47,521 bases of DNA, from positions 1-47,521 of the forward strand of contig JAUCBJ010008479.1 of NCBI GenBank assembly GCA_032718475.1, in the 5' to 3' direction. The position numbers and the translations under genes were made by a program. The notes under the pieces are model-generated. The model worked only from the letters and a program-made list of their open reading frames with translations. It ran no database searches and was not told where the DNA came from. Positions 1,372 through 43,355 of the stretch are shown here, one piece after another. How positions within the stretch are numbered: position 1 is the first letter of the stretch; each line of letters begins with the position of its first letter. Source of the stretch: Nemertoderma westbladi. Its lineage: Eukaryota; Animalia; Xenacoelomorpha.

Positions 1372-1450
1372 ACAGATTCGTGTAGATTCGTCGGACCGCA
1401 TATTACCTAATAAAGTAATAAACTTACATAACATGTTTGTAAAAGCTTTT

Positions 1451-1580
1451 GTGGACATAACAAGCCATTTTTATCCGCAATATACCGTGTAGGTGTTTTA
1501 GCGGACATAACAATCCATTTTTACCCGCTATGTCTGCATGTGTGCTTTAGCGGACATAACAAGCCATTTTCTCCGCAATG
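1451..1580 (+). repeat. ~50-bp tandem repeat (2.6 copies) at the start of U3; also present in the 3' LTR
   Basis: G(C/T)GGACATAACAA(G/T)CCATTTT at 1451, 1501 and 1550, with homologous intervening sequence. Confidence 0.85.
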
Positions 1581-1671
1581 CGCTTAATACTCTAAAGGCC
1601 GGAACTCAGATGACGACATCTACCAGCTGATTTGCTGACATGGAACTTTCCCTTGTTCTTTGTTCGGCTCA

Positions 1672-1743
1672 GCCAATCAGAGCGATTTTAATTTTATGTG
1701 GAAAAGGAGCCTATGTAAACCGAGCAAGTCTGTGTATGTCAGT
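1672..1743 (+). promoter_or_regulatory. Candidate LTR Pol II promoter (CCAAT box, TATA-like box, Inr)
   Basis: GCCAATCAG at ~1672, TATGTAAA at 1712-1719 and TCAGT initiator at 1739-1743 (canonical ~29-nt spacing). AATAAA at 2227 and 2515. Confidence 0.45.
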
Positions 1744-2606
1744 AGTAGTGTTTATCTTTCTAAGCCCAGAACACCGGCTTAGGATTCTTCTGTACTTCTG
1801 TGGAAGTTTCAGACTTTGGCCAGAACATTGGATGGCTTTGATTAAAGAAACGTAAAACTATTACTGGCCATACTACCCCACGGCCATACTCAATGCACTA
1901 CGATTTGCATAAGTAACATATACTGATTGTTCACCGCATTATTTTACTGTTTGTTATAATTGTTATATATGGATGGATATGTTATTGTATTTGGAGAATA
2001 ACGATAAATAATCATAAACCCCAATCTTCTTGATTACTGAAGGTAAGAGGGACCAGTTACCTGTAGCAACGGCGACTTACATTATAGTGGTTTTTATGTG
2101 AATTAAATGCTATTTCATAATCCCTACATGTGTCAGTTGCTATCCTCCTTATGCATGATCAAATTCAGTGACGGTCGGCAGATCAGTGTGAAGTGGTGTT
2201 AAGTCATGTGCAGTAGTGTGACTGTTAATAAAGCATCTCCTAAAGAATGCGCCTTTTACGAAACTCAATAGCCATCTAGTTGTGATTAGTATAAGTCATA
2301 ACTCTGTTTTTATACTTAAAGCGCCTCGTCCTAAAGGAACTGTTAATATTTCCCCGAAAGTGAATATATTGTCAGAGATTATATAGTAACGATCAATCGA
2401 ATAATACAGTAGGTCTGCAATGCAATAATAAGTCAAAGCATCCGAATCCAGTCTCCCTTAACAGTGGGTGAATGGTTGCGCATAGACTGGCTTCGGCTAA
2501 TGTTATTTCAGTGTAATAAATAATTTTGTAGGCTAAAGTCGATTTATAAACAAGAAGACACCTAAAATTGGCAGGTTAAACTGCTAAAGGTCTAAAAGCG
2601 CAAACA

Positions 2607-2619
2607 GTAATAGTTTTAC
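2607..2619 (+). other. Non-tRNA primer-binding position, complementary to an LTR-internal motif
   Basis: GTAATAGTTTTAC immediately follows the LTR (no TGG). It is the exact reverse complement of GTAAAACTATTAC at 1852-1864 and 16399-16411. Confidence 0.7.
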
Positions 2620-4394
2620 TAGTTTCTTTATTGCACCGTAGGCAATAAAGTCAAAGGTACCGGTCGAACGGTAAGCTGTAGGCGTAACTGCCCAACTGCC
2701 CGAACCGGTACTTACAGGTACAACAGTATTATTAGATTTTGATAATTATATACCAGTAGGTCTTGATATTTAATCAGGGACGGCCGCCCTGGTTTTTTAT
2801 TGGGATTTTACTTATTTCTGTCAGTTTTATTTATCAGTAAGTGTAATATTGAGCAGAAGGAGTGTAAGCCTGCTCAGATTGTACAGATAATATGTAGGCT
2901 GGATTGTTGTCTAGCTGTTGTTAGGTCTGAAGAGATTGCAGTGTGTGTAGAGTGTAGGTCCGATAAAGTACTAGTTAGGAAAGTGGGGGCATCCAGTGTT
3001 GTAAGGTGAATCCGCCCCGAAAGAATAAGTCGTACTACTCGGTTAGAACGCATACTAACTAACCATTTCGGAGTCTGCATATACTGTAGTTTATTTGGGC
3101 TTGACAGTAGTCTGCCAGCATTTGGTTTGAATTTTGTTTGTATAGTCTGCACGGGTAGCGTAATATTTATCATTCAGAGTTTATGCAAGTATTCGCAACC
3201 TTCAAATACCCCAAGTTTATTCCTACAGTAATTGTGCTTGTTATACATACTGTTATAGTTAAATTAACCCCGGTACTACATCAGGGCTGCTTGGCGTAGG
3301 TAAAGACTGGTGATTTTATGCTCTAGTCACTCCAGCAGATGCCGTGGTTCTTTTAGCTGTTCAAGTATATTTAACTGCTGGTTATTTGTTGTATAAGTAT
3401 TTGTACCTAATCTAGGGTTTAGTGTACAGTACTTTCCGAAGGTAATTTAGTTTGTAGGCAGTATATTTGTGTTGTAAAGTGGTTAATAGGCACGTTAGCT
3501 CTGGTTGGCTGCGGTAATTAACTTCTAGGTAAGGACACTCCAGGTACATAACGTAGTACTTATAGTGCTGTAGAGCAAAAAGACTATAAGTCGTCAGACG
3601 GTGGTATTTTCTTATCTGGACAACGCAATTTATTTACTACTGCTTAATTATTTTCAAATACCGTAGTATCCTGTCCATTTGTAATAACCAGAAATTCTAA
3701 CTCCCTGTTAGACTGGTTTGTAGACTTCCTGTAAAATTACCCTAAAATTTGTACCTGTAATTTGTTATTGTTTATTTAGAGATTGTAATCTCACCCTATA
3801 TGTAAGTAATTAGTAGTAATAAGTAACTTAGTAAAGTAGAATTATTTGTTTTAGTGTCCAACAGGTAGCACTCCACTGAGAGCGTTTAGCTTCTGTGTAG
3901 TGACCCTTACCAGAAATAATAACATTTATTTCAAACATTATCAAAACCCATTATACGGGTATATATAAATATATTATAAATCAACTCAAACAGATTTATA
4001 AAATAGTAGGCCTGTCATACATCAATTAGGTCTTAATATCAGTTGGACTACTGCTTAATAACAGTAATAAAGTAAAGGAAAGTAACTCTAAAATTCAGAA
4101 ATTCAGTTATTCTAAAATAATTGACATTGCCGTTATTTATAGTAGGCTTATTATATTTATTTATATAAATTTATGCTGAAATTATATACCGGTATTCTGT
4201 AATTAATTCTAGTCTATAATAATACTTATATATACTATAAGTGTATACCGGTATCCTAATATATTATACATATATATCGCGTTACATTGAGTAACAATAT
4301 CGGTAATTAATTATTAGGCTTACAGTTGATACTGAATTACTAGATCTGCTTTAACTGTTGATATAATAGTAGGCATTCAACTGTATAATCAAAC

Positions 4395-4961
4395 ATGGCT
4401 GACACAAAGCAAACTCTGTCAGATAGTCTCCTAGAAACAACAGTCTGCAACTCAGACAGGAGTGTAGAACATCTTAGACCGAAGTTCAAGTCCCCTCCTA
4501 CTGTAAGAAAGGTCATCCCTCCAGTAGTAGTATCAGACCCTAGGCTGGTAAAGCACCGTAGGTCTATCATAGGCACTCGAGCTCAAGTCAAGCGGGACCA
4601 AGAGGCAGCTGTTAAACAGCATCAACATCCGAACCGAGAACTTATTTCTCAGCGGCCCGATAGCTCCAGTAGTTCAGATACTGTAGAGTTGACACCAGAG
4701 ATCGGAGCAAAGATGGCAGAAGCGGTTTATTCGGATCCCCTTCTCATTCTTCCTGAAGCCGTACTCACTAGGGTATTGATCATGGTGGAGGAACATCAAA
4801 TCGATTGGGCGAGAAGTAGGCGATCGACCAAGGACAGTTATGCGGGATACACAATGGAGGGACTGAAGTCTATTGTCGAGACGCAATGGAACTTCCCCGG
4901 CCCGGACTCTCGTTTAACTTATCGGAAGCTGCCTGGGAGGACTTATACCGGATGGGAGTAG
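4395..4961 (+). CDS. 188-aa ORF at the head of the element 1 coding region (probably frameshifted gag N-terminus, or a separate ORF0)
   Basis: ATG-initiated after a 1.8-kb leader; overlaps the next ORF in another frame; no recognisable motif. Confidence 0.45.
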   Translation: MADTKQTLSDSLLETTVCNSDRSVEHLRPKFKSPPTVRKVIPPVVVSDPRLVKHRRSIIGTRAQVKRDQEAAVKQHQHPNRELISQRPDSSSSSDTVELTPEIGAKMAEAVYSDPLLILPEAVLTRVLIMVEEHQIDWARSRRSTKDSYAGYTMEGLKSIVETQWNFPGPDSRLTYRKLPGRTYTGWE

Positions 4962-7900
4962 TAAAGGATACTCGAGATCCCGCTGTGTGGAAGAGGTCGG
5001 CAGCAGGATATGTCCAGGGATTCTTCAGCTCTTTGGAGCGATTAGAGGAACACCTGTTTCAACAACCTCACGGACCTCAAGAGCAGGGAGAGCTGCTTTA
5101 TCAAGTTCGAGAACGAATTCTACGGATCAGACTAATCCTTTCAGCCTTTGAGGAAGCCTCGAAGAGAAGCCAAGACACGTCGTTGCAAGTCGCCATAAAG
5201 ACTTGGTTCCAACGGGTGAGTCTTAAAGTCCAAGGAACAGCCTCATGGAAAATTCAACTAACCGAACGCTCGACCCAAGGAGAATCAACAGACGCCGCCT
5301 TTTCTCAAGTGGAAAGCAAAGTTACGACAGAAAAACCTCAGAAGAAGGACGCTATTGACATCTATCTGTTGGACTATCAGCGATTTATAGGAGACAAAGA
5401 GTTAAGGAGACGGTTAGCTGGACTTCACCCTAAAAGTGGGGGAGCCAAATTTGTGTTAGACTCATTAGATGCGGAAATTTTAGCCTCGGATCGAGCTAAA
5501 TTTGAGGAAAAAATCCGCATTGTTAGAGTCCAAGAAGAGCAGCTAAAGAAAAAACAAATAGAAGACAGAAAAGCAGCAACAGCGGCAGCGGCAGAAGTGA
5601 AAAGAAAAGCTGCAGTGGCAGAGGCAGAAAGAAAAGCGGCAGCAGCAGAGGTGAAAAGAAAAGCTGCAGTGGCAGAGGCAGAAAGAAAAGCGACAGCGGC
5701 AGAGGCAGAAAGAAAAGTGGCAATGGCAGAGGCAGAAAGAAAAGCGGCAGCGGCAGAAGCGGAAATAACTGCGGCAGTGGCAGAGGCAGAATGAAAAGCG
5801 GCAGCGGCAGAAGCGGAAAGAACTGCGGCAGAGGCAGTGGTCAAAGCGTTCTGCTTTGACCACTGCCTCTGCCGCAGTTCTTTCCGGAAGGCATCTGAAG
5901 AGACAACCCAACTCGAGTTGGAAAATCTTCAAGAGAAGCAAGACTACTTAAATAAACAGATAACAGCTAGTCAGATGCAGATGATAAGTCGATCTACTCC
6001 CAAGAGACAGGGATTTACATCATCTGATGAAGGTGATACAACAGATCCTTAAGGCGGAGGAAATAGATCTCGTTCCAACAGACGTAGAAGAACACCCCAC
6101 CGTCAGAAATTGCCTAATTTGCCCCCAGTTGTGAGAAGGCAACTAGCTAGTGTAGACTTAGGTAGTACAGAATCCACAGACCAAGTTATTAGAGTAGAAA
6201 GACTCCCTACTATAGTAGATGAGCCTGAAATAATTGGGCCTGTTCTCGAAGCCACCTCTTCTGTGATAGAGACCCCTGTACATCCAGAACCTAACTCTAA
6301 ATTCCCTTTGCACGGTACTAAACTACCTGTGCCCAGTAGAATAGTCCCTAAATTCCCCCCGGTCCTGGACGCCGAGCAAGACATCAACAATTTGTCGCCC
6401 GTCGTCCCTCGTCTGCCCGCTACTATGTTGGCGGCTCCCGCTTCGGCAGTAGAGTAGGTGGATGAGGGACGGCGGGAGATTTGTCTCCTGCTCGGGCAGC
6501 TGAGGGAATACCGGGTATGTTCCTCCCAGCAGGTCCGGGAGTTGGAAGGGACTGTTCAGCAGTTAAAGGGAACAGTAAGAGAGGGTAGGTTAGAGTTGCA
6601 AGAAGTGCAGCAGAGTATCGCGTTAGAACGCAATAAATTGGTAAATATACAAAGGGGTATACCACCACCCCCTGTAACAATGTGTCAACCTGTTAGGTCT
6701 GAAGTATTTCATGCGCAAGGTGTGGAGCCTACACGCATCTATACTGCTAGTGAAGTAGAAACTCCTATAGTAAACCCTATTAAGGATAATTATAAACCTG
6801 TTGATAATTATATTCCATATAGACCTGATCATAATCCGAGAAATTTATATACCGATAACTTGATATTAAATAATACGATGGCCCAAGAAAGTTTTATGCG
6901 TCAAATGGCTAGAACTGAAGCCCGTCAAGCGGTAAAGGTGGGAGAGATCGTCAAGTTCAATGGAGATGAGATGAAATGGTTACCTTTTAATGAATATTAT
7001 AAAGATAACATACAGAGTTCCGTACTATCCCACAGAGAGAAACTAAGATTCCTCATCGAGTGCTTGGAAGGACCTCCCAAGTTAATGGCGTTAAAGTTTA
7101 TTGGACATCCAGATGGATTAAGACAAGTTTGGGATACACTAAACATCAGGTATGGTAATAGGACTAACATAGCTAGGTATTTGTATGCGAAATTAGTAGC
7201 GCCCCGAACGTTTCTTAGCAGCGGGATTATAGAATTTTCCGATGAGATCCAGGAGATCTGTAGACAGCTAGATTGGTTAGGTAAGTCTCATGAATATCAG
7301 AGTTCCATGGTTATTGGAGCCGTAGCATATACTTTGTCAAAGGGTGGAGTAGGTACTCGTTGGGACAAGAGAGTGCTCTATATGATGGACCAGCAACAAA
7401 GAGACCCTACCATGGCTGATCTCATGTCATTCTTAAATGGAGAGGTAAGATTACAGCTCCTAAAACAGTCCCGATAGAAGTACCGGAAAATAAGGTAATT
7501 GAAAAACCGGTTTCTAGAAGAAAGGTAACACCAGTTTGTTATACAGATGACGGCAAAAGCCAAACCTCTCAAGAGGAGAATAGCGGGAAAGACACCGAAA
7601 GATCTTACTATGTCAACAAAGCACCTAAAGACGTAAGTAAATTTAAGTCTCGAACCAGTGACAGGAGAGAACAGGTTACAAAAACTCCTCCTACGTCTCC
7701 TAAGATAATTCATGGAAGAAAGCCCGAGGAAAGAACCAGTGTGCACAACACCACACAAGGTAAAGTAAGTAACATCAAGCCAAAATGTGCATTGTGCGAC
7801 GGGCCCCATCGTTTAAGTGTATGTGATGAATTCTTGAAGAAATCCCTAAAGGATAGACGTGATGTCATGAGGGATAAGCGGTTGTGTTATAATTGTCTCA

Positions 7901-7990
7901 GACAAGGACACCAACGACGAACCTGTTACTCGGACATGAGGTGCGCTAAGTGCGGCGCGAAACATCATATCTTGCTGCACACAGAATTTG
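4886..7990 (+). pseudogene. gag: Bel/Pao gag with long coiled-coil N-terminus; in-frame stops and a frameshift
   Basis: ORFs at 4886, 5837, 6110 and 6458 are all in one frame, separated by single stops. AEAERKAAAA repeats; core KFNGD..W..F / KLRFLIECLEG / WDTLNIRYGN; triple knuckle CALCDGPHRLSVC, CYNCLRQGHQRRTC, CAKCGAKHHILLH. Confidence 0.85.
5814..5886. repeat. Perfect 34-bp inverted repeat with a 5-nt loop inside gag
   Basis: CGGAAAGAACTGCGGCAGAGGCAGTGGTCAAAGC (5814-5847), loop GTTCT, exact reverse complement at 5853-5886. Confidence 0.95.
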
Positions 7991-10900
7991 AAAGAACCAG
8001 CCCGAGTCAGGTAAGTGAGTCTGAACTACATGTCCAATTCAGTGATGTGAACGACACTGACCACAGCTCTGAGATGGAAGGATTTTACACGGACGAATTC
8101 TCCGACGAAAACGAATCCTGTTATATGATAAACACCGCGGTGTATCGAGCGCTTACGTATGAGACTGAAACCGATAAAAAAACGCACCCAGCTATTCCTG
8201 ACCGACAACCATCTTGGAAAGCGCCAACTTCCAGCGTCGGAATCCGGGAATTCCTGGTAGTTCAGCTGAGAGTCCATGGATTAGGTAGGAGTTTTATAGT
8301 CAACGCCCTCCTGGACTCCGGCAGCACAGGAATATTCATCGACAAAGAACTAGCCAAAGACATCTTTGCTGGACAACCCAAGTTCCGAACTAAGTTGAAC
8401 CTTTCAGGAATTATGCAGGTTTGGAAATCTACAGTAGCTACGGACTACTATGTAGGAGCGGTGTCCACTCCCCAGGACAAACTAGGAGAACATAGCAAAA
8501 GGTCAGTAAAAATGGTGGCGATAAAGAACTTTGCTACCAGCCAAGTAGAACCTTACAACTGGGATGAAGACAATTTTACCCAGCAGCATGATATCCCTAA
8601 ATTCAACACCGACTACCCAGGGGTGCAAATACTGATCAGTCAAAATGCGCATGAGGCGCTTGAGACATTAGAAAAACGGCCTGCTCGACCGCAACCATTG
8701 CAAACATATGCGGGGAGAACAAGAGTAGGTTGGTACTTCACTGGACCTTCCCGTAGAACACTCATGGAAAGATTACCTACCGAACAAATACATCAGGTGA
8801 GTGAGTGGGAAGAAGAAATCAGTAAGGGAGAGATCACACCTGAGGGAACACCATACTCCTCAGATAACAACGATATTACTCAATTATTTGACGAGGAAAA
8901 TACAATCGACCTCCTCACCGAGAGTGAATTTTGGAAAAACCAAATGCAACTGTCCCATCTTGTTAATCATGGCGGACAACTTGACTACAACGACGAGCTA
9001 AATGAGGTGATAGATCGACACATCGCTAAGATTCGTGATGAACACGCAGTACGATTCTTTACTCAAGAAGCTGTAGAGCCTAATTCCTATGACAAAGCAC
9101 TATCGGTCGAGGAGGAAAGAGCCAAGCAGATCCAAGAAACGACTACACGTTTTCTTAAAGATCAAGGTAGGTATGAGATTGGTCTGCCATTCCGATGGCG
9201 AGAACCAAACTTTATCAATAACAGACCGTTAGCTGAGAAGAGAATCGCGCAACTACATCGGCGTCTTACAGCCAATGCTTCAGCTAAAGAGATGTATAAG
9301 ACCCAGCTAAAGAAATTTATCAATAAGGGATACGCGGAGCGAGTACCAGAAGAAACACCGTAACTGAGAACATATTATCTAACACATCATTACGTTCCCA
9401 AACCCGGTAAACCCAACGAAGTCCGGGTAGTATTCGACGGCTCCGCCCTTTACATGGGCCAATCCCTTAATTCTGAGTTGTTGCCGGGACCCAACTTACT
9501 ACAATCCTTGTTGGGAATACTCTTAAGACTACGGCAATATTCTATCGCTTTCGCCTCAGATATAGAAGGTATGTTCTTACAAGTCAAGGCACTGGATAGG
9601 GATCGAGACAGCCTACGATTTCTGTGGTGGCCTGAAGGAGACCTCAACCAAAAACCCGTGGAGTACTGGATGACCATCCAGGCTTTTGGAATCATCTCGA
9701 GCCCCTCGAACGCTTGTTCAGTAGTGTGTACCACTGCTGATGACAACCGAGACGCCTTATCTAAAGCGGTTATCGACAACATCAAACCGGATATATTCAT
9801 GGACGATAATTTAAAGTCCCTCCCATCGGTGGAAGAAGCCATTGATGTAGCCAAGGGAACGGTAGAGTGTTTGAAGCGTGGTGGATTTCGACTAACCAAA
9901 TTCACTAGTAACTCCCGTGAGTTTCTGGAATCAATCCCGGAAGAAGATCGAGGTGTTAAAGAGCTGAACCTTATCAAGGACGATCTTCCGGAAACCAAGA
10001 CGCTTGGTTTGAAATGGGACACGGAGAGAGATATCCTGTTTTTCCAGCTAAAACAGCAAGATAATCCAGTTCGAACTAAACGTATTTGTCTAAGTATCCT
10101 GAGCACTTATTTCGATCCATTGGGATTTATTAGCCCCATTACATTGGTTGCTCGGAGTTTAGTACAACAAATGTGGCTTGAAAACCACTCGTGGGACAAT
10201 CCACTTAAGGGAGAACTACTAAAGAAGTGGATGAAATGGGAAGATTCTCTACCATCCATCGAGAACTTTACCATTTCCCGTTCATATTTTGGTCACGTTC
10301 TCCCCACGTATTCCTATCAACTCCATGTGTTTGGAGACGCCAGCGATATGGGATTAGGTATAGTAGCCTACCTGAGAGTTGAAACTCCGGATGGAATTAA
10401 AGTTGCCTTGGTTACCTCTAAGGCCTTGATAAACAACAAACTACGAGTTCCTCGAGCGGAGTTAAAGGCGGCTCTATACGCTACAGCCATCGGCCGGAAT
10501 GTAACAGAACAGATCGACTATCCACTAGAGAAAACTGTCTATTGGACTGATGCTTCACTCGTTTTGGAGTATATAACCAATGAAGTCTGTCAGTTCAGCA
10601 TCTTTGTTACCAACAGAGTAGCCATTATACTTAGTCGCACTAATGTAGATAAATGGAGACATTGCCCTGGGACGATTAATCCAGCCGACATCGCCTCCAG
10701 AGGAGCGACTCCTCAAGAACTGATAGATACTCCGGACTGGTTAGGTGGACCCGACTTCCTAAGTAAAGAAGAAGATGAATGGCCTCCTCATCTTACCACG
10801 GCTGAGATTAGACAAGCCAAGGGAGCGGAGAAAGTCAAACCTAAAACCCGGACGAGTAAATCGAAGTTATTTAAACCCGTGATAGATCTGTGTGTACTAC

Positions 10901-12618
10901 ACATTTCCAGGGACGACGCTGTGGATCTAAACTCCCCCGCCACAAATAAATCTGTTGTGGAGATTAGAGAGAGAGACTGGTAATCTGGAACACCAGATGT
11001 CTCGCAGGGACTCTCACCTCTCCTGCAGAGAGCGATAAATCACTATAGCTCCTGGAATTGGCTTTGTAAGGCCGTCGGATATTTGAAGCGATGCTTCCAT
11101 CATCACTACTCCAGGATGAAGATCGCTAGTGATACTCCTCCACTGACATCTGCGCAGGTCCATGCTATTAAAGATCTTTCCAAATACAAGGTATCAGAGC
11201 GGTTTCTGACGGAGAAGATCAGTTACCAGGAGCATGAAGAAACCAATAAGCAGATACTGAGACTCCTGCAATGCTATGAAGATTCCGATAAGTATTTCCT
11301 GTTGTTGAGAAATCCACAGATGCGCTTAAGGGATCGTTTCTCTAGCACAATGATAGATGGATTAATACGCGTTGGAGGGAGACTAACTAATGCTCCATTA
11401 TCCTTTGACACTAAGTTTCCCATACTCATTAGAAATCTTGAAATACAAATCAAGATGATTGTAGATGTTCACAGTAGGCTTTACCATGCTGGTAGAGAAC
11501 GAGTTCTTAGCGAAATTCGAACTCGCTTTTATTTTCATAAACCCCGTAGAGCTCTGAACAAAGTTCTTAGGAACTGTATACCCTGTAGGAAAGCATTTAG
11601 TAGGTTTAACACAGTGAGAGGCAGAATTACCTAGGGAACGCGTAAGCTTCTATGAACCCCCCTTTACTAATACCGGTGTGGATTTATTTGGCCCTATTGA
11701 AGTATATCGTGCTAGGATAGGACTATAGTCAAGCGATGGTGTGTCATCTTTGTCTGTATGACTTGTAGAGCGATCCATCTAGATATGGTGAACGATCTAT
11801 CTACCAACAGCTTCATACTGAGTTTACGCCGACAGATCGCTCGCTTTGGAACTAGCAACACGATGAGATGTGATAAGGGAACGAACTTCATTGGCGCCAA
11901 TAATGAGATCAAGGCTTACGTTAAAGATTGGAACCAAAGACAGGTGGACAATCAGCTAAGGGTAACAGCATCTAGCTGGACCTTCAACGCCGCCGACGCC
12001 CCTTGGTGGGGAGGAATTTGGGAGAGATTAATAAGAAGCGTGAAGACCGCATTTTATTTTATAGTGCCGTGCCGCGCGTATCTCACCGACAAACTTTTGC
12101 GGATGTTAATGGAAGAAATCGCAGCCTATCTTAACGAGAGACCGCTTATGCCAGTCTCATCGAGTCCCGACTCCCTGGAAGCGCTAACACCCGCGCACTT
12201 CCTACTGAAGAAACCTGTAGCCATGCTACCACGATCGGAAATCACGGACGGAGACGAATACTGCCGACAAACTTGGCAACTTATGCAGTTATTATCCCAT
12301 TGTTTCGCTGACCATTTCGAAAAACATTATCTGCCTACGCTACAACTTCGAACCAAGTGGTTTGCGCAGCAAGAAAATGTCAGCGCCGGAGAAATGGTCC
12401 TTATTGTGGGGTCAGATCTTCCACGTAAGCGGTGGCAGAAAGGTCGTATCATCGAGACTCATATCTCCGATGATGGTTTAGTGCGATCGGTAGAACTCAT
12501 CATCATGCGACGTAACTTTAAGAAACCTGGAATTGTATTCGAAATGCAGCAGCTCAATCGCCCAGTTGGTCGTTTATGTTTACTGGAAAGAGACAGAGAA
12601 CTATCCGGAAACTATTGA
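7991..12618 (+). pseudogene. pol: Bel/Pao pol (protease, RT, RNase H, integrase), disrupted
   Basis: PR ALLDSGS; RT RVVFDGS, SDIEGMFLQV, FMDD; RH LHVFGDAS, PRAEL, WTDAS, NPADIASRG; IN H-H-C-C, GVDLFGP (shifted frame), CDKGTNF, GIWERLI. Stops at 9361 and 10981; compensating frameshifts at ~11610-11720. Confidence 0.92.
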
Positions 12619-13204
12619 AGGCAAGATACTCTTCCCACAACCACCTCCCTAATCCCGCAAACATCTAGGGACTCCCCAACGTAGAGTTTGGAGTGGGTGT
12701 GTGACTATATTATTTTATATTTGTTTTTATTATTTTTATATTTACGTATGTATTATTATGTAATTTTATAATAATCGTTTTCTTTAATTTTATTTAGTAG
12801 AATGTTATTTTAGCGATTATTTAGTAGAATTAGTGCCATATATATTCGCGTTTATTACTTAATTACTTATATTATATATTTAGTGTAACGGCGAGAAATA
12901 ATTCTTTTTCTCTTTCCTTACTGTCCGTATCATATTATAAATGCGTGACTACAGTAAGATGAAATATCCGTACTTATAAAAGTACAATAAAGCTCCTACT
13001 ATATTCAAGTATTATTGGTAAGCAGAGTATTAGGAATGCAAAGTTCAGATCCTCATGTCTCGGCTAAACCAAGCTCTGGGTAGACCTTGGAAACGACTTG
13101 CCTCTTCTCACTGACATTGCTTCTTGCAATATTGCTCTCATACCGTATATTAAATATTACATATAGTAGCGTGATGTCCCTTTAACAGTAGCGTAAAATT
13201 CAAA

Positions 13205-13580
13205 ATAAATCTGTTAAACCCTTTGACCATCTGTAATTCTAGTCGATTAAGATATCGCAGCACCCACCGATATACTTGAAAGACAAAATTCTAGAATCAA
13301 TGGTTAACGTCCCCAGACAAGTTCTGGAATCAATCGGTGCCCATCTTAAATATTAATTATTTAATATTTATAAAAATCTATTAAGACAAATATAATAGCG
13401 TAAACGCTAAGAAATAAACTTTAGAAAATCTACAATTTAAAATCTGTTAAAATTTAGATCCTCTAAAAATTCTAGTCGATTAAGATATTGCAGCACTTAC
13501 CGATACTCTTAAAGGACAAATTTCCTAGAATTAAGGATCCTATTCCCCAGACATGCTCTGGAATAGAATTGTGTCTATTT
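13205..13580 (+). repeat. Diverged direct duplication (~235-bp period) in the pol-ORF3 spacer
   Basis: AAATCTGTTAAA...AATTCTAGTCGATTAAGATAT(C/T)GCAGCAC...CCCCAGACA...CTGGAAT occurs at ~13207-13330 and ~13440-13565. Confidence 0.8.
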
Positions 13581-14456
13581 TAGTGATAAATAATAAAATT
13601 TACAGGAATAAATTTAAATTCATATCCTCTCATGAATTTGATAAATTGTCATTTTATACAATTTATAACATTCCCAAAATTCCATTAATTAATAGATCAT
13701 GGGAGCGGAGATTTACCCTATTAAGTATATTAGTGTCAGAAAATCTCCAATATATAGTCAATAGCTGATAAAATTCATAAAATCATGTATAAAGGGGAAT
13801 ACTGCAATTAAAGGATTACTATAAAATAGCATCCCAGATCTGTATGCATGAGAATTACCCTAATTCTACCGCTAGCTTTCCATAATGTCACCATAGCAAC
13901 AACCACGCTAGAATTAGAAGCGAGTTAAAAGTAGAATAGAAAACTTGCCCCATTGAATAGCATATGGAATAAATGGCACACTGCTAGTATCCAGGGATAC
14001 ATAATAATAACGTGACATTCTGAAGGCACTTGACTAACGGACAAATGACCCGAATGTGTGACAGAATGTGTACAATTTGTGACAGTTGTGTGGAATTTGT
14101 GCGTTTATAGGTGAATGTTACTATTAAAGTGTGTTTACAGTAGCGAGTCGCAGTTGTGAAAGTAACCCTACCTCTGTAGCAAGAACCTGAAGTAAATCTA
14201 GGCCCTTGGGACGGACAGTGGAGTGACTCACGCTGAGTATTGTTGTCGTTGTGTAGCTACTACGTTGGCGAAAGGCACAGCGGCAACAGTACATTAGCGC
14301 TGAGGAGCTTGCGCTGTCCGGGGGCATTGAGGGGGAGGCAGCGACCGACGACCGCTTGCCTAATTATAATTAATTATAATATCGATAAACTCATATAGCA
14401 GCGATGACTGCGTTGATAGAAGATGATCTTGGTATCAGGGAACGATATACCCTACC

Positions 14457-15906
14457 ATGCAAGCGTTTGTTGATAGTTTAATACGCGGCGACGCTAGTCA
14501 ACCCACTACGGAGGACGATGGCCGTTATATAGAACTGCCAATATCAAAGGAACAACTCACGCGTAAATTGGACTATAGAAAATTCACCGCTCGCTATAAG
14601 CATCGTAATGGTACGTATATGGACTTCTTAACTACTGGTCATCCTATCGATTTACACAATACGGATGATGTAGACACCGAAAGGGAAATGGTTCTATTTA
14701 AATATCATACCCAGCGGAGTCGGAACGATAAACTGAGAATCGAACACGAAAAATTATATTCGAAACTGACTCGAAAGAAAGATGTTGAAGAGCCGGATAA
14801 ACGCAGTGACTTCAACGAATATCTGGAATTATTGAGAGAAACATATCTCAATATAGCCAGTCAACAAAATCTCGAAACTCAATATCCTCAAGGTATACAT
14901 CATGACCCTATGATAGAACTCAAACGACTCTATTTCACTATGATGTATCTTACCACCGATCGACCGCCAATTGTTGTACCGGATAGCTTCGAACAGATGG
15001 AGAAATATTGTAAAACTGGAGAAAGATCACCCGCGTTTCCCCTACAGGACGTGCGTCTTTGGTATTATTGCGATGAATGCCCTAGACCCAACCAACAAAC
15101 GGAAAGACATAAACATCCCCGGAGACGTTGCGCTAAACACCGTTTTACTCGCTATACTTACGGGATTTTCGAGCGAATCTTGTTCGACGTATCACCCGCG
15201 CTCGCTCGACTCAAACGATCCTTAAATAACCGATGATCAGAATTCCGGAATACTTGGTCAGACCTCCTCATTCCCTAGTGAGACCTCAAACTCTTGATCC
15301 TAATAGTATAATGAACTGTACTCACTGTTCAAAGATCTAGTGTTACCCTAACAATTAATCGGTGGCACTCCGGTAGTGGGCTCTCTAGATATTTGCCCAT
15401 CCTACCTAGCCGGATTGGGACGCAGACATTTAATATTGCCGTTTAACCCGTATAATCGTCCCGGTTTAACCCTGATACAACCTGTCATCAAGGCGGAGGA
15501 GAGCGTTGTACGAAACGCGTTAGACGCTATTCGGCAAAGGATCGGAAAATGAACTTACTATTGTTTAGAGAAACGTAAATTGCAGCAGCAAGTTCCAGCA
15601 GTAAACGAATTGGCTTTACCTCAGTTCGATTGGGAAATCCAGAATCTATAAGAAGATTTCGAACTTGGACGACCCTATTCTCTGCGAGAGTTTTTGGACG
15701 AACGCATCCAACGACAAGCGGAGGAAAATCAGCTCGAGGAGAAGCATATCAAAATGGACGAGACACTGACCGTAACCCTAAACCTTTTGATGCAACCTTC
15801 ACCCAGGAGTTATAGACCTCCTAGTAAATTGGCTCACCCCAAAGAGAAAAGGACTCTTGCTAGCCTCAAAAAACTTCGTAAACGCCGTTCACGTAAGAAG
15901 GACTAG
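14457..15906 (+). pseudogene. Extra ORF (ORF3) of element 1, frameshifted, with a ~2.7-kb internal deletion
   Basis: Co-linear with the N-terminal ~385 aa and the last ~50 aa of the 1345-aa ORF at 43434-47471. Junction MDE/TDRNP at ~15762. Confidence 0.9.
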
Positions 15907-15976
15907 TAGTTTAGAGTATTTTTATATTTTAGAAACTGTGATTTTATATATTTTATTGACTCAAATCCCATTTTCT

Positions 15977-15984
15977 GGGAGCGG
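15977..15984 (+). other. Polypurine tract of element 1
   Basis: GGGAGCGG abuts the TG of the 3' LTR; identical in element 3 (43356-43363, minus strand). Confidence 0.75.
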
Positions 15985-17151
15985 TGTAAAAGCTTTTGCG
16001 GACATAACAAGCCATTTTTATCCGCAATATACCGTGTAGGTGTTTTAGCGGACATAACAAGCCATTTTTACCCGCTATGTCTGCATGTGTGCTTTACCGG
16101 ACATAACAAGCCATTTTCTCCGCAATGCGCTTAATACTCTAAAGGCCGGAACTCAGATGACGACATCTACCAGCTGATTTGCTGACGTGGAACTTTCCCT
16201 TGTTCTTTGTTCGGCTCAGCCAATCAGAGCGATTTTCATTTTATGTGGAAAATGAGCCTATGTAAACCGAGCAAGTCTGTGTATGTCAGTAGTAGTGTTT
16301 ATCTTTCTAAGCCCAGAACACCGGCTTAGGATTCTTCTGTACTTCTGTGGAAGTTTCAGACTTTGGCCAGAACATTGGACGGCTTTGATTATTGAAACGT
16401 AAAACTATTACAGGTCATACTACCCCACGGCCATACTCAATGCACTACGATTTGCATAAGTAACATATGCTGATTGTTCACCGCATTATTTTACTGTTTG
16501 TTATAATTGTTATATATGGATGGATATGTTATTGTATTTGGAGAATAACAATAAATAATCATAAACCCCAATCTTCTTGATTACTGAAGGTAAGAGGGAC
16601 CAGTTACCTGTAGCAACTGCGACTTACATTATAGTGGTTTTTATGTGAATTAAATGCTATTTCATAATCCCTACATGTGTCAGTTGCTATCCTCCTTATG
16701 CATGATCAAATTCAGTGATGGTCGGCAGATCAGTGTGAAGTGGTGTGAAGTCGTGTGCAGTAGTGTGACTGTTAATAAAGCATCTCCTAAAGGCGCCTTT
16801 TACGAAACTCAATAGCCATCTAGTTGTGATTAGTATAAGTCATAACTCTGTTTTTATACTTAAAGCGCCTCGTCCTAAAGGAACTGTTAATATTTCCCCG
16901 AAAGTAAATATATTGTCAGAGATTATATAGTAACGATCAATCGAATAATACAGTAGGTCTGCAACGCAATAATAAGTCAAAGCATCCGAATCCAGTCTCC
17001 CTTAACAGTGGGTGAATGGTCGCGCATAGACTGGCTTTGGCTAATGTTATTTCAGTGTAATAAATAATTGTCGTAGGCTAAAGTCGATTTATAAACCAGA
17101 AGACACCTAAAATTGGCAGGTTAAACTGCTAAAGGTCTAAAAGCGCGAACA
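15985..17151 (+). repeat. 3' LTR of element 1 (1167 bp)
   Basis: Direct repeat of 1438-2606, followed by TSD ATGTT. Confidence 0.95.
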
Positions 17152-17290
17152 ATGTTACCCTATAAAGTAATTAACCTTACATATTTCTCCTACCTAATAA
17201 AGTAATAAACTTACATAACATATTACCGTATAAAGTAATTAACCTTACATATTATCTAATAAAGTAATTAACCTAACATATTATCTAATT
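17152..17290 (+). repeat. ~30-bp AT-rich minisatellite split by element 1 (first part 1399-1437)
   Basis: CATATTACCTAATAAAGTAAT(A/T)AAC units on both sides of the insertion. Confidence 0.7.
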
Positions 17291-32891: not shown

Positions 32892-33166
32892 TGTCGTGCA
32901 ATATATTATTTTATCCACTTAGGAGATCATACCTCACACTTACATTAATTGATTTACTGTGCAAACAATATGATACAAGTTACAGTACCACTTTATGTGC
33001 CAACATGTGTTCGACTCATACTATAATTAATTTGATATATGAAGTATTGAGGTGACGGGATTTGCGTAGATTAATTAACATTTATATTATCAAGAATATA
33101 GTAAAGTTTTACATTAAAAGATTATTTTCCATTACAACCAAGTAATTGGTTGATACATGTACGACA
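32892..33166 (+). repeat. 5' LTR of element 2
   Basis: TGTCGT...ACGACA. Confidence 0.97.
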
Positions 33167-33176
33167 TGGCGCCCGA
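33167..33176 (+). other. Primer-binding site, tRNA-Lys(UUU)-like
   Basis: TGGCGCCCGA matches the first 10 nt of the canonical Lys3 PBS. Confidence 0.75.
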
Positions 33177-33266
33177 TAAAAATTTATAATTGTAATTAAA
33201 TTGAGTAATTTATTACATTTGAGTAAGTTCACTGGTATTATTGAAACGGCATCATCATCATTCATC

Positions 33267-36200
33267 ATGGCAATGTCGGAAGAAAAGGAATTGCGTCAAC
33301 TACGTGGATCAAGGAAGGGCATTCGGTCGGCTACCACAATCTCCATCGACTCCATAGAGGACGACATTGGCACTCTCAACATTGAAAGTCGAACAAGTAA
33401 AATAGCGACACTCGAAAACTACAGAGAAAGACCAAACATTATTAACGAAAAGATTTGGTCACTGATGGAAGAGGACATTGTAGAAACTGACACTGAAGGT
33501 GCAGTGAAGTATGAGGTTAGACTATCTGACACTATCACTAAACTCAAACTCTCAATTTCCGGTGCTAATTATGCAGATTATCAGGGTACTGTAGTACAAA
33601 ATCAGTCTGAGATTAATGAAAATTTTGTACCGGTACAGCCAAGTAACGTTCCTACATTTCATAGTAGTAGTATAGTAGCACGTTCTGTCTTGCCAAAATT
33701 ACACCCACCAAAATTTAATGGTAACCCTCTCAATTATTGTGGCTGGAGGGATGCATTCCAATCAGCAATTCATGATTCTGGGCTTCCAGATGTGCTAAAA
33801 TTCCAACACTTAATACAAAGTTTAGAGGGACCAGCCAAATCAGTCGTAGCAGGACTTCCGGTAACAGGGGATAACTACAGTATAGCTATGGAATTATTAA
33901 AAGAGCAGTTTGGGCAGGAGAGTCGAATAATAAATTGTCACATTGAGCAGTTACGTAACATTTCACTTAGGTTAGGCAAAGCGAGCACCCTCCGACAAGT
34001 TTACGATACCTGCACATCAAATATAAGAGCATTGGAAGCATTGGGGGTTACAACAGTTGAGTACCAAAGAATAGTTATTCCAGATATTTTAAGGGTAATA
34101 TCAGTTGATATAACAAAACGGTTGTTAAGATTCACAGAAAACAAGGTTGATAATTTAGAGTGGGTAATGGCACAGCTGAAAATCCATTTAGCCACGGAAG
34201 ATGCTGTAGCGGAATTATCTCAAAGCAATAAAGCAGTTTATGGAAGTATTAATCAATCATATGCAATGCCAAGCGCATCAGCACTGGTTGTGTCGAATTC
34301 AGCAACTAATAAATATACAAATAACAACTACAGAGCAAACAATATGCAGCGTTTTGATACCCGAAACTCACGCCAGTCAGAGCAAACGGTATCAAACTTC
34401 TCCAGACCAGCATCAGCAGCAATGCCCCACTGCGTGTATTGCAAGCAAGGACACTACTCATCAACGTGTCACATAATAGCAGATGTTGAACAAAGGAGGA
34501 ATTTTTTAACTACAAACAATCGTTGTTATAAGTGCCTCGACAACTCTCATCAAATACGACATTGCAGAAGAAAGAAACCGTGTTACATATGTCACGCTCA
34601 CGGTCACCACACATCGATTTGTAAAAAAAACACCAAGCCAAATCCAACACATATCCAAGCACCAGTAGTTATTACAAACACTGAATCAACAGAACCAATT
34701 TCAGGATTACAAATGGTCATGCCACATTATGACGAAACAGATGGTGACGTTCTTTTACAAACAGCAGTTGTACGCTGTTTGCTTGCATCAAATCAGGAGT
34801 GCATCATTAACATATTATTTGATCCAGGCGCACAAATTACATTTATAACAAAACGGTTCGCGGATAAACATTATTTACCGTTGTGCGGTAAACAAGGTAG
34901 TGAGGTAGGAGGTTTTGGAGGTGTCAGCACAGAGCCAAATAATTACGATGTCACTCAGCTGACTTTAATTTTACGTGATGGTTCTACGAAGAATATTAAA
35001 GCATTAATAACACACAATATTTGCGCACCACTAAAGGCAGGGATTGGAAATAAAGCATGGAAAGAAACATGTACATTAGACTTACAAGCTTCGGAGTTGG
35101 CTGATCCTTCAATAAGTATTCCAAATAACGGAGGTGATTTCATTATCGATTTGTTGGTGGGAGCCGATCAGTATTGGAACTTGGTTTCCGGGTCAGTGTT
35201 GAGAGCAACTAACTCTGATCTTGTGGCACTGGATAGCGGAGTGGGTTGGTTGCTTTCGGGAAAAATTTCTTACAATACACATTTAAGTCATTCTAACCCA
35301 CACAACATTGGATCTTGTATGTCTATCATCACTAAGATTACAAACACAGATTCAGATACATTAGATGAAAATGAAAATGACGTAATTTTAAAATTACTGC
35401 AAGCATTCTGGACATTAGAAAGTATAGGTATAACTTCACCCAATGACTTTGATGACCCTAAGAATGTTTTAAAGGAAATAGTATTCATTAATGGAATGTA
35501 TTCCGTTTCATTACCATGGAAGTTAGCACCTAGCAGTTTGCAGGACCACTATTGTCTGTGTCTTAAACAACTAGCATCATTAATACACAGATTACAGAAG
35601 ATGGGCATTTTACAGAGATATCATGACGTCATAACGGATCATCTTTCCAAAGGCTATATCGAACCAGTAGATCATAGGGAACCAATAAGTAAGGATCAAG
35701 TAGCACATTACATTCCACATCATGGGGTGTTGAGAGAAACTCGATTAAGCACAAAATTAAGAGTTGTATTTAATGCATCAGCTAGAACATTTCCTACCGA
35801 CCTATCATTGAATGATTGTTTAGAATCTGGCTCGCATTTATTTCCAAATTTGTGTCATTCATTGCTACACTTCAGGCTTCACAGCATAGGAATCACTGCC
35901 GATATTGAACAAGCTTTCCTACGCTGCCAGATAAATAAAAATGATCAAAACTGTTTACGTTTTTTGTGGATTAAAAGCTGCTCAGGCATTGTTATTGAAG
36001 AAGCAAACATACAGGCATATCGATACACAAGGGCACTTTTTGGGCTCACTTGTTCACCTCATATTTTGGGAGGGATTGTAAAGCACCATTTGGACATTGA
36101 ATCAGAAAGAATGGATCTACAACAGAGTGAAAGGGATGCTATCGAGAAGTTGCGTGAGATTCATGTGGACGATTTATGTTCAGGAGCCAATTCGGTAGAA

Positions 36201-39200
36201 GAAGGTAGATTGTTGCAAACAACATGCAAATCTATTTTAGGACGGGCGGGATTTAAAATTAGACGGTGGACCACAAATAGTTGTGAGTTACAAAGAATGT
36301 TTAATGCAGTTGAAGAAAGGGCAAGCAACTGTGATAATCGCACAGCAGAAAGTATAATTGAGGAAGATCAATCATTTGCAAAAACGAATCTCAGCTTATC
36401 ACCACCTCAAACGAATATTGTAAGACGCGTGCTTGGTCAATGTTGGGATTTGTCAACAGATACAATTGGCTATGACGTTTTGCCAGTATATAACTTCATT
36501 GCAACTCTCCCTTTAACAAAAAAAAGTCATTCTTCAACTTTCAGCAAGGTTGTACGACCCTCTTGGTTTACTTTCACCATTTACGGCTCAATTTAAGGTC
36601 ATGTTTCAAGAACTTTGTAAGACTAAAGTAAGTTTAGAGTGGAATAGCCCATTACCAGATCATATGGTTAAGGTATTCAAGAAATGGTTAGAAGATATAC
36701 CTCATATAAATAATATAACTGTGCCACGATATCTATTTGACACTACAAGAGAGATTGCTACGTTTGAAATACACGGATTCTCAGACGCTAGCAAATATAT
36801 TTATGCAGGTGTGGCATATATTCGCACAACTTACACAGATAACACATCAAGTGTGAAACTATTAGCATCGAAAGCAAAGGTTAACCCAGTACCAAAAAGG
36901 GGAAACTCTTTGGGTACACCTCGACTCGAACTCTTAGGAGCACTCATTATGATAAGATTAGTTACATTTGTCAAACAAGGTCTAAAATTACCATGCAAAG
37001 TTTATTTGTGGTCAGATGCAGTAGATGTAATTTACTGGATAAAAGCGACTAGTTCAAACTGCAAACAGTGGGTTCAATCCAGGGTTACGGAGATACGTTC
37101 ATTAACTCAACAATTGAAAGGCCAGTGGCGGTTTTGTCCAGGAATACAAAATCCGGCCGACTTACCCACAAGAGGGATGACAGTAGAACAACTCATAAAG
37201 GCAACTACTTGGTACAATGGCCCAAAGTTCTTAAGCGCAGAAGAGGAAACTTGGCCGAACAAATTAGTTATAGATCCAATAGAGGTATCACAAGATTGTC
37301 TAAAGGAATTCAAATCATCCATTGTGGGGCGAGCCACGAAGTTGGCGGAGCCTTAGCGAATTGACACTGTTAGGGGGTGGGTCAATTTATGCAAATAGTT
37401 GTCGTTGTCGTCGTCGTCGTCGTCGTCGTCGTTACGATTTTGACATGCTAATAACTTTGTCGGATTTAAAGCTGCCAAGTTGAAAATTTGTAGGTATCAA
37501 TATGAGCAAAAGTTGAGATTTTTGAGAGACTTTCAGACACCATCAGTGCAATGGTCTCCCGCTAGAGGGCCACATGTCTAAACATCAATTCTTTGCTTTT
37601 AATCCGTTTAAGCTGAAACTTGGCAGATATGTATTAGACCATTAGCTGTGACTTTCAAAGGAGGCGAATCCATCTGCAGTTCTCCAGTCTGCCGCTAGAG
37701 GGCCAACGTGACTATTTGCATAAATTGACCTACCCCCTAACAGTGTCAATTCGCTAAGGCTCTGCCAACTTCGTGCTGCGCGAAGTCCCCACTTCGTGTA
37801 GCTGTTACGACCATTAAATCACCCGATGAAGTTATTAGCAATTGTTTCCCATACTCCAATTATAGCAATCATACTGTAATTATACGAAAGCTTGCGTGGG
37901 TGCTCAGGTTTGTGAGCAACATTCGAGCAAGCATACACAATCATCCGCTTTCCCTAAGTGTAGTTCCTTCGGCAGAAGAAATGACTCAAGCGGAAATTAC
38001 ACTACTTCGAATGATACAATTAGAATATTATAAACCAGAATTAGAATACTTGCAACAACCGAAACGTGGTCGATGTCCAAACATTATTAAGCAATTAAAC
38101 TTATTTATTGACCACCAAGGTGTATTACGCTCCAAAGGTAGAGTACAGACCCCATACTTAACATGGCAGGCTCAAAATCCAATACTACTCCCACCGAAAG
38201 ATCATTTCACTAAGCTAGTAATTTTAAATGCTCATCATAAAGTTATGCATTCACGTGTAAGAGACACGCTGGTACAAATACGGGAAAGATATTGGATCCC
38301 CCGAGCGCGTCAAGTCATTAAGAATGTTTTACGAAACTGTGTAACCTGTAAAAGAATACAAGGCAGACCTTATACAAAACAGGAAACAAGTCCTTTGCCC
38401 ATTGAACGCATGACTATCGACATAAGTCCCTTTACTAATGTCGGGATAGATTTTGCAGGACCAGTGATGGCAGTTAGATCTCTTTCTGATCCGATTGGTT
38501 CAACATTTAAGGTTTATATATGTCTGTTCACTTGTGCTGTAGTAAGAGCAGTGCACTTGGAACTCGTGACCAGCTTAAGTGTTGCAGCATTTATCAGTGC
38601 ATTCCCGCGATTTATAGCAAGACGTGGAGTTCCAGCATTAATTTTTAGTGACAATGCTTCTACATTCAAACGATCAGCAGCAGATATCAAACTCTATAAC
38701 GAATTTCTTGACAGTGACATAGTACGCAAGGAGTTTGGAGAACTCTTAACAAAATGGGTATTTAATGTAGAACGCTACCCGGCGGCATTTGGCTTTATAG
38801 AGCGTTTGGTCGGTGTGACCAAAGGAGTTCTTCGCAAGACGTTAGGGAGAGCAGTTTTAACTGAAGAGGAAATTCGTACTGTACTTACATCATGTGAGGC
38901 AGTTGTTAATAGCAGACCACTAACCTTTATTTATAGCGACAGCAAAGAAAATTACCAGATATTGACACCCAGCCATTTCTTGGTAGGAAAAAGACTTTGT
39001 GCACTTCCATCCCCTACCGTAAAATCAATTAATCTAGATTTGTCTCGAACGAATCTTATAAATCGACTTAAATATCAAGAAAGAGCGTCCAATTTATATT
39101 GGAAATTATTTCGTGAAGAATACGTCGCAGAACTTCGGCAACACCATCGTTCCAAAAATCACAATAACAGAAACACAATCATCCCTAAGGTTGGAGATAT

Positions 39201-39546
39201 GTGTTTACTTCTTGATGAAAAACTTCCAAGATGTCTCTGGAAGTTGTGTATGGTTAACAAGTTGATAGTAAGTCGTGATGGAGTTATTCGCGCAATAACA
39301 GTAAATGTTGCTGAAAGAGGTCGGGAAGCAAGACTTCTTACTCGTTCCATACGTCATGTTATTCCATTGGAAATAACAGCGGACAAACCAACTGACACGA
39401 CTATTAAACCAGATAAAGATAATCTCAAGCCAGTTCCAGTAGACAATAAGATAACAAACGATGAGACAGCGATCATAACTGACAATTCTCGTCTTTCACG
39501 CTTGGCTAAGAGAAAAATGAAACCAGGATTTTACAATACAAAATAA
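33267..39546 (+). pseudogene. gag-pol: Single gag-pol ORF of element 2, broken by one extra A (36518-36525) and a 471-bp insertion
   Basis: PKFNGNP..F, KFQHLIQSLEG, three knuckles, ILFDPGA, KLRVVFNAS, ADIEQAF, HVDD, HGFSDAS, PRLELL, NPADLPTRG, GIDFAGP, SDNASTF, FIERLV. Confidence 0.92.
37324..37792. mobile_element. Helentron-associated (HINE/DINE-1-like) MITE inserted in pol
   Basis: GTGGGG...CCCCAC ends flanked by TT; ~63-bp subterminal inverted repeats; (GTC)n microsatellite; duplicated CCGCTAGAGGGCCA core. Removing 37324-37794 restores the pol frame. Confidence 0.8.
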
Positions 39547-39825
39547 TTACATACAGTATTGAACAAACTCGAGTTGGATTATGTAACTTTATTATATATT
39601 TAGTGAATATTTGTGTGTTCTACTTAGTATTTTACAAGTAAGATTATTGTTTATATAGCGGAAACGTATGTAAGTTTATGTAGTACTGTAAATGAAAATT
39701 ACTTTCAATTTACAATTATGTACTGTATAATTTATTTATTGTGTTGAGGAATAAATCATATCAGTACAGTAGTGTTATGTAATTATTTTATTGATTTAGA
39801 TTTTGCATGATATGCAAGGGAGGAG

Positions 39826-40100
39826 TGTCGTGCAATATATTATTTTATCCACTTAGGAGATCATACCTCACACTTACATTAATTGATTTACTGTGCAAAC
39901 AATATGATACAAGTTACAGTACCACTTTATGTGCCAACATGTGTTCGACTCATACTATAATTAATTTGATATATGAAGTATTGAGGTGACGGGATTTGGG
40001 TAGATTAATTAACATTTATATTATCAAGAATATAGTAAAGTTTTACATTAAAAGATTATTTTCCATTACAACCAAGTAATTGGTTGATACATGTACGACA
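39826..40100 (+). repeat. 3' LTR of element 2
   Basis: Direct repeat of 32892-33166. Confidence 0.97.
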
Positions 40101-42130: not shown

Positions 42131-43355
42131 TGTTCGCGCTTTTGAAGACCTTTAGCAGTTTAACCTGCCAAAATTTATATGTCTTTTAGTTAATTAAAAC
42201 ACCTTTAGCATACGACAATATTTTATGCTAATAAACAAAACATTACCCGAAGTCAGCCCATGCGCGATCATTCACCCGATGGATCTACACCCGGGAGGCT
42301 GAATTCGGCTGCTTAAATTTTATTATTGCAGTGTAAGGTTGCAGTGTAAACTTACTGTATTATTCGATTGATCGTTAATAATTAATTTCTGACAGATATT
42401 ATTGGCTTTCGGGAAATATTAACAGTTCCTTTAGGACGTGGCGCTCTATCTATTTAAACAGAACTAGGACTTATACTACACGCAACGATACTGCTTATGA
42501 TTAAAGTATAAAGCGCATTCATTAGGAAATGCTTTGTTGCCAATCACAATCATGCACACTATTCTGCCGACCGTCAGTAAATTTGATCACACATAAAGAG
42601 AGCAGCAATTGACTCATGTAGGGTCTGCTAAATAACATTAGATTCAATACACACCACATTAATATAAATCGCAATTGCTATATATAGCCTGTCTCTCTAA
42701 CCTGTAGTGTATCAAGAAAATTGGGAAATTTGGGTGATTTATCAGTATTCTCCAAAGAGCAATATTTCCATCAACAAATAGATACAATTAATTAAATTAA
42801 ATTAAATTAAATTAAATTAAACTGACGGTAAATAACAGTACAAACAATATGATTAATAGTGAGTTAATTAGATCAGATAAGATTGATTGCTTAGTTAGGT
42901 AACAGTTTATACTTTCGATAATTTAAGCAGTTTTACTAGAGTTCTTCCCAAAAAGCCGGTGTTATGGCGAAAAATGGGAACACAACAACAGAATCATATA
43001 AAATCATATGACTACCAACTATACGAGGATACCAACTACCCTTATTCCCCGAAGCTCCCGTTCAACACAGAGGATGAGCAGTGAGATAGGAAAATTCAGT
43101 TCAGTAGCTCTGGGATAGGTCGAAATCAACGCCCACTCAAATTCTATTGGCCGATACGGACAGCAAGGCTAAGGCAACCTCTCTAAGCTAGTTGGCCGAT
43201 TAAACTGAGCCCAGATACCTCCGTACAGCACATCAGCCAATAAGCTGGTAGCTTGCACTATTTTAGTTATAAATCCCTTTGAGAGTATTCTAGCGACTGG
43301 GGGGGAACTGGCCAGCAAAGGCAAACGTATCAGTTATCCCACAAAAGCTTTTACA
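42131..43355 (-). repeat. 3' LTR of element 3 (1225 bp)
   Basis: TGTAAAAGCTTTTG...AAAAGCGCGAACA on the minus strand; 3' half alignable to element 1 LTRs, 5' third divergent; (TTAAA)n at ~42787-42821. Confidence 0.9.

Follow-up and report, generated by a model that had tools for sequence, protein, structure and literature searches.

The stretch of DNA analysed here (the window) comprises 47,521 nt of contig JAUCBJ010008479.1 of Nemertoderma westbladi (assembly GCA_032718475.1). It contains a defective copy of a 15.7-kb Bel/Pao LTR element at 1438-17151 (E1), a second, distant Bel/Pao element (E2) and the 3′ LTR of a sister family of E1 (E3) (Table 1). The two LTRs of E1, both TG...CA, are 97.6% identical; a 5-bp target duplication, ATGTT, flanks the element at 1433-1437 and 17152-17156; and a purine tract lies ahead of the 3′ LTR. 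The gag-pol region is interrupted by stops and frameshifts, and the Pfam domains DUF1759, Peptidase_A17, Integrase_H2C2 and DUF5641 occur in it in that order, which identifies E1 as Bel/Pao. PF05380 is carried by all of the best protein matches listed for E1, and the searches made returned no protein relative closer than 44% identity, so E1 is given no clade name such as Suzu, Sinbad or Sailor. Pfam found no chromodomain in the E1 frames scanned, and the proteins are not those of a Ty3/gypsy chromovirus. The Bel/Pao membership of E1 rests on its proteins.

Elements of the Belpaoviridae have genomes of 4.2-10 kb, LTRs of 0.2-1.2 kb and an 18-nt site for a host tRNA (PMC8742986). E1 agrees with this profile in its set of Gag-Pol domains and their PR-RT-RH-IN order, in the length and TG...CA ends of its LTRs, in its purine tract and in its target duplication; it departs from the profile in having no 18-nt site complementary to the 3′ end of a host tRNA, and also in its 15.7-kb length, its 1.8-kb leader and its orphan 3′ ORF (PMC8742986). 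The leader (2607-4388) is unusually long, and the 3.4-kb 3′ region (12619-15984) holds the orphan ORF, for which no homologue was found among 104 candidates of near length. Gag has a long N-terminal part, in which a 27-nt tandem array at 5524-5847 encodes a repeat rich in alanine, glutamate and lysine. E1 is itself surrounded by another repeat with inverted ends made of 19-bp units (1270-1378, 18926-19018; 17152-17282), probably a DNA transposon.

Table 1. Positions of E1, E2, E3 and their parts within the window
Feature	Position	Strand	Remarks
5′ LTR of E1	1438..2606	+	1169 bp, TG...CA
Outer duplex extension, E1	1843..1851	+	Complete only in 5′ LTR; probably incidental
Predicted self-primer of E1	1852..1864	+	13 nt, contiguous, ends AC; LTR position 415
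Predicted pairing partner, within the LTR, of U5 end 2593-2602	2248..2258	+	One arm of a Tf1-like "pretzel"
U5 stem	2442..2496	+	Two compensatory pair changes, E1 vs. E3 (columns 234/283, 238/279)
U5 hairpin just ahead of primer site (U5-IR-like)	2568..2587	+	Pairing probability 0.94; conserved
Primer-binding site of E1, non-tRNA type	2607..2619	+	Offset 0 from LTR end; starts GT
9-bp hairpin 2626-2634 : 2642-2650	2626..2650	+	3′ bound of primer site; 0.97 from start 1852, 0.53 from start 1741
gag-pol of E1	4389..12618	+	Several frames; DUF1759, Pao peptidase A17, integrase H2C2, DUF5641
Extra 3′ ORF of E1	14427..15236	+	Without homologues; common to E1 and sister family E3
3′ LTR of E1	15985..17151	+	Primer core retained at 16399-16411
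E2, distant Bel/Pao element	32892..40100	+	Conventional TGG site at 33167; used as internal control
3′ LTR of sister family E3	42131..43355	-	72.7% to 3′ half of E1 LTR; own primer site beyond window
E3 segment aligned to E1 primer	42899..42912	-	G where E1 has A

The putative primer site of E1 complements its own LTR

The 13 nt straight after the 5′ LTR of E1, 2607-2619, read GTAATAGTTTTAC and are the exact reverse complement of 1852-1864 within that LTR. As the first-pass annotation had noted, no TGG directly follows the LTR: the first lies at 2790, 183 nt away. The primer 13-mer occurs exactly three times in the window, at 1852, at 16399 and reversed at 2607; the core is present in both LTRs, as had also been reported, and it therefore predates the insertion. 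A match of at least 13 nt starting 0-5 nt past the LTR arose in 5 of 20,000 dinucleotide shuffles of the E1 LTR (p = 0.00025), and none of 13,200 internal positions of E1 reaches a 12-nt match to its own LTR, the longest being 10 nt. No tRNA gene was found within the window, and an Rfam scan of 1400-4500 gave three matches, all far under the gathering score, and no ribozyme.

Two longer forms of the complementarity had been described. With the terminal CA of the LTR included, the match is indeed a perfect 15 nt (2605-2619 : 1852-1866); with a 2-nt bulge the duplex grows to 24 bp in the 5′ LTR (24 of 26 blastn columns), although this form is absent from the 3′ LTR and a local hairpin competes with it. 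The 3′ LTR differs at 1845, 1846 and 1865, so both extensions are confined to the 5′ LTR; they are probably incidental, the 24-bp one probably not functional, and the robust part of the complementarity is the 13-nt core.

A rival reading takes the match for a fold-back at the DNA level (template switch), or for a chance product of a single defective copy. Five of the 24 inter-LTR substitutions of E1 cluster in 1833-1868 (vs. 16380-16415), three of them strengthening the pairing in the 5′ LTR (p 0.0008 for the targeted interval, 0.084 once all windows are scanned), and the LTR stretch right after the primer lies near single-copy depth; as the copy is defective and three LTR differences improve pairing, part of the match may be secondary. 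The site is nevertheless carried by family contigs, and matches that exist only across exon junctions in relatives (see below) cannot arise by DNA fold-back. We regard this explanation as extremely improbable: it is largely refuted for the core, and may account for the extensions.

E2 serves as an internal control for the site of E1. In agreement with the first-pass annotation, which had assigned it a tRNA-type site, TGGCGCCCGA adjoins its LTR directly on the 3′ side (offset 0), and no complement to its own LTR was found.

Predicted RNA structure around the site

Folding of E1 RNA from four trial starts, each to 2720, predicts the duplex 1852-1864 : 2607-2619 with a pairing probability of 0.64-1.0 over the four starts, across a primer-to-site separation of 742 nt. 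The U5 end is predicted to join a second helix (2248-2258 : 2593-2602; probability 0.6-0.7 from start 1852), whose GCGC core pairs in three of three LTRs. The hairpin just ahead of the site is invariant in E1 and E3 and so carries no covariation evidence; the compensatory changes in the U5 stem are drawn from three sequences only. On the leader side, 2626-2630 are predicted to favor the local 9-bp hairpin over the outer extension of the duplex. Compared with the pretzel of Tf1, the central duplex and the U5-side helix are predicted in E1 and the leader side is a local hairpin, so that one of the two flanking helices is predicted.

The site is a variable trait of the E1 family

The E1 family is present in four DNA runs from three studies and is abundant in the host: in one of the runs as many as 6130 contigs cover 1.2 kb. 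The exact 25-nt U5 pattern of E1 had no match in metagenome contigs. The first-pass annotation had considered that a TGG site might simply have been deleted from this copy. Contigs of two studies span the LTR end, the primer site and the leader, and no TGG form is listed among them; likewise, none of the 11 downstream loose ends (among 16 of 41 loose ends) starts with TGG, and four of the downstream ones continue into letters resembling the hairpin arm 2624-2634.

The LTR of E3 contains two candidate primer segments. In the one aligned to the E1 primer a G replaces an A, from which a C at 2611 is expected; this was a blind prediction, made before the variants were listed, whereas A2618T had been seen earlier. 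T2611C occurs in the family contigs at 42% and 44% of depth in the two studies (16 and 6 contigs) and is the only alternative letter listed at that position. It would restore a Watson-Crick pair with the G of the E3 LTR; the two variants are unlinked, the family contigs being too short to join site and LTR segment on one molecule. T2617A, expected from one E3 segment, is not among the variants listed. Other listed changes fall at 2614, 2618 and 2619, with none listed at 2608-2610; G2607A/T was left out of the site variants, because AT-rich insertion flanks can produce such changes. The primer site is a family trait with varying letters. The second E3 look-alike lies at 42928-42939 on the minus strand, and its first 11 nt perfectly complement E1 2612-2622, including the two bases bulged in the E1 duplex.

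Many distant relatives carry different sites that match their own LTRs

The relatives compared here, 36-45% identical to E1, come from metagenome contigs searched by alignment and are the best 80 of at least 427 loci confirmed as Bel/Pao; viral contigs gave one marginal match and no usable Bel/Pao loci. Twenty-two of the 80 were scored, 11 with an LTR end fixed by the divergence of the two copies and 11 with an inferred end, from which L039 was then removed as belonging to the same family as L037, leaving 10. Left out were L019 (unclear end), L033 and L034 (duplicates of L035), L026, L049, L067 and L074, and the rest had no readable LTR.

In seven of the 11 fixed-end loci, 9-15 nt of the post-LTR site are complementary to the LTR of the same element. 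The match is contiguous in L048 (11 nt), L057 (11 nt) and L066 (12 nt; LTR end uncertain by a few bases), and exists solely across a GT-AG junction in L012 (12 nt), L037 (11 nt), L041 (15 nt) and L075 (9 nt). Matches of this length were reached by at most 7 of 1000 shuffles, and the sites of other elements score 7-9 at best on these LTRs, below the own site on each. A TGG within 5 nt of the LTR end is found in three of the 11 (L042, L045 and L072, the first two close kin), while L032 shows neither a TGG nor an own-LTR match. Among the inferred-end loci, the true orientation scores 10-11 in eight of ten, against decoys that score 10 in one of 20 and 11 in none of 20; neither signature was found in L027 and L050. 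The first-pass annotation had proposed that complementarity be sought beyond this copy, its failure in other copies or subfamilies counting against self-priming; complementarity recurs in other families, in different letters. Primer and site change together across these distant families; within the E1 family the matched variants are unlinked. The first two letters of the paired site are GT in 12 of 14 self-matching relatives, as they are in E1; L040 is omitted from this count as its 11-nt match has two candidate places.

Ten of the own-LTR matches in relatives are formed only when two exons are joined, an indication that the pairing takes place at the RNA level. A GTAAG donor is used in eight of these ten, vs. 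18 of 177 permitted background sites (p 4e-7, an optimistic value since the families are related). A primer of this splice-junction subtype is rejected for E1 itself: its primer is contiguous, and no junction match of at least 8 nt to the primer site was found in its LTR. The sole GTAAG donor motif of the E1 LTR (2043; window 2040-2049) aligns with a donor-like site in E3, and it is possible that an intron or a spliced RNA derives from R/U5 of E1, yet without building the primer.

It could be argued that a host RNA (a half-tRNA, an snRNA or a piece of mitochondrial tRNA) is the primer and that the matching LTR segment was captured from it; half-tRNA primers do occur in Ty1/copia lineages (PMC6317226). 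But subfamilies do not agree in the site, nor do at least 14 related loci, each of which matches its own LTR or splice junction, and a single host RNA would not tolerate the variation at 2611, 2614, 2618 and 2619. We therefore consider a host primer very improbable.

Alternatively, the duplex could be a regulatory or packaging structure, closing the leader or controlling translation or dimerization, with some other primer at work. The U5 of E1 is rich in conserved and partly covarying structure, and a priming intermediate has not yet been seen; against this, all own-LTR matches begin 0-3 nt past the end of the LTR and span 9-15 nt, mostly 11 nt, no alternative TGG is near, and the elements that have a TGG site are without a match. 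A purely regulatory role thus appears unlikely.

The primer could also be the element's own RNA in another form: a piece of the 3′ end, generated in the 3′ LTR by cutting or polyadenylation, or a second RNA supplied in trans. An ATTAAA hexamer lies 18 nt ahead of the primer end in the 5′ LTR (1841), and a spliced sister RNA could prime the splice-junction relatives. That hexamer, however, is missing from the 3′ LTR, where polyadenylation happens, and from E3, which disfavors a poly(A)-end primer; moreover, no AATAAA occurs in the 45 nt ahead of the contiguous primers of L048, L057 and L066. We consider primers of this origin quite unlikely, though the trans form may apply. The 45 nt ahead of the primers show no promoter motif common to them.

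Relationship of E1 to the self-complementary clade

In a quick tree of 51 RT/RNase H rows with SH-aLRT supports, the self-complementary loci fall within one clade (99) and the three TGG loci within another (99); E2 clusters with the outgroup. The long branch of E1 is placed outside both clades, with a weak support of 84, and a grouping with the self-complementary clade is neither rejected nor demonstrated by the AU test (p 0.547, under a simpler model and with the group named after the tree had been seen). Four relatives in the self-complementary clade, L019 together with L032, L027 and L050, have neither a TGG site nor an own-LTR match that we could find.

A putative self-priming mechanism

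The comparative evidence, own-LTR sites in relatives and a varying site within the family, supports the proposal of the first-pass annotation that this family primes itself, and suggests that E1, which lacks a tRNA site, probably primes minus-strand DNA synthesis with its own RNA in a Tf1-like manner. LTR bases 1852-1864 would pair with the 13 bases straight after the 5′ LTR, in a duplex predicted to be framed by the U5 hairpin, the U5-LTR helix and the downstream hairpin. A cut after 1864 would leave a 3′-OH opposite 2607, facing the terminal CA of the LTR, with A2606 as the first template base. The primer of Tf1 is produced by RNase H cleavage, and by analogy the cutting enzyme of E1 would be the RNase H of its own reverse transcriptase. 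Still by analogy with Tf1, strong-stop DNA would extend along the LTR as far as the cut and no further; after strand transfer the 3′ LTR would serve to restore the primer region, and primer and site would stay matched through the copying of the still attached primer into the plus strand. Such a scheme, in which the 3′ LTR and not strong-stop DNA supplies the primer region, would let an intron inside the primer persist; splicing of the 3′ copy may in turn yield intron-less contiguous forms such as E1.

We also put forward, tentatively and with some doubt, a broader scenario: self-priming in Bel/Pao may be widespread and undescribed; a large clade may splice an LTR intron to build an 11-nt primer, intron-less forms arising repeatedly; and the deeply diverged E1 lineage may either have branched off first or have invented self-priming on its own, its primer being cut inside the transcript and not at its 5′ end.

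Comparison with known systems

Tf1 RNA folds into a three-duplex structure in which its 5′ end pairs with the primer site (bioRxiv 10.1101/2022.12.06.519325; PMC4600332), and in about half of Tf1 cDNA a copy of the primer site is retained at the 3′ end (PMC11042837). Like Tf1/Tf2/Tj1 and Tf1/sushi generally, E1 has no tRNA site, has a site after the terminal CA that complements its own LTR, and has a predicted U5 structure adjoining it; the primers are about 11 nt in Tf1, 13 nt in E1 and mostly 11 nt in the relatives of E1. The differences are that E1 is Bel/Pao while Tf1/sushi are Ty3/gypsy chromoviruses; that the primer of Tf1 is known to be the 5′ end of the RNA, whereas the predicted primer of E1 may be that end or an internal segment; that 742 nt separate primer and site in E1; and that the primer of the relatives is often split by an intron, which the available portions of these sources do not describe for Tf1. 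E1 would work like Tf1 yet is no Tf1/sushi member.

Besides the self-priming reported for Tf1/sushi, there are predictions of it for Tcn1 (gypsy) and for TAR/Houba/Osr-1 (copia) of plants (PMC6317226). E1 shares with Tcn1 and TAR/Houba/Osr-1 the criterion applied there, at least 10 complementary nt located 0-5 nt past the LTR, and in each of them self-priming is a prediction (PMC6317226); these elements belong to other superfamilies and hosts than E1. We found no report of self-priming in Bel/Pao in the literature searched, outside the scope of which lay most subscription papers, Repbase reports and supplements; the available main text of PMC3118150, PMC554778, PMC6238403, PMC8220671 and PMC12451622 holds no primer passage, and their supplements could list Bel/Pao sites. 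A search for Cer7 returned no relevant paper. Cer7 of C. elegans is a Bel/Pao element that encodes its own tRNA-like primer for a TGG-type site; that primer is a tRNA-like copy, whereas E1 has no tRNA gene in the window and carries the complement within its LTR.

If self-priming of E1 and its relatives is correct, it would gain a third LTR superfamily, and these elements would be freed from the tRNA supply and from silencing by tRNA fragments; pipelines that demand a TGG site would miss or misjudge many animal elements; and, for the splice-junction relatives, host splicing would be a step in the manufacture of the primer. Given the abundance of the E1 family in the host, sequencing of its natural RNA and cDNA intermediates should pose little difficulty.

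Other features of the window

The LTRs of E2 are nearly identical and 275 bp long, yet its gag-pol is split over three frames. Upstream of E2 lie a 68-bp tandem array (24378-25221) and a C2H2 zinc-finger ORF (30042-30725), the latter followed by a 20-bp repeat array (30965-31445).
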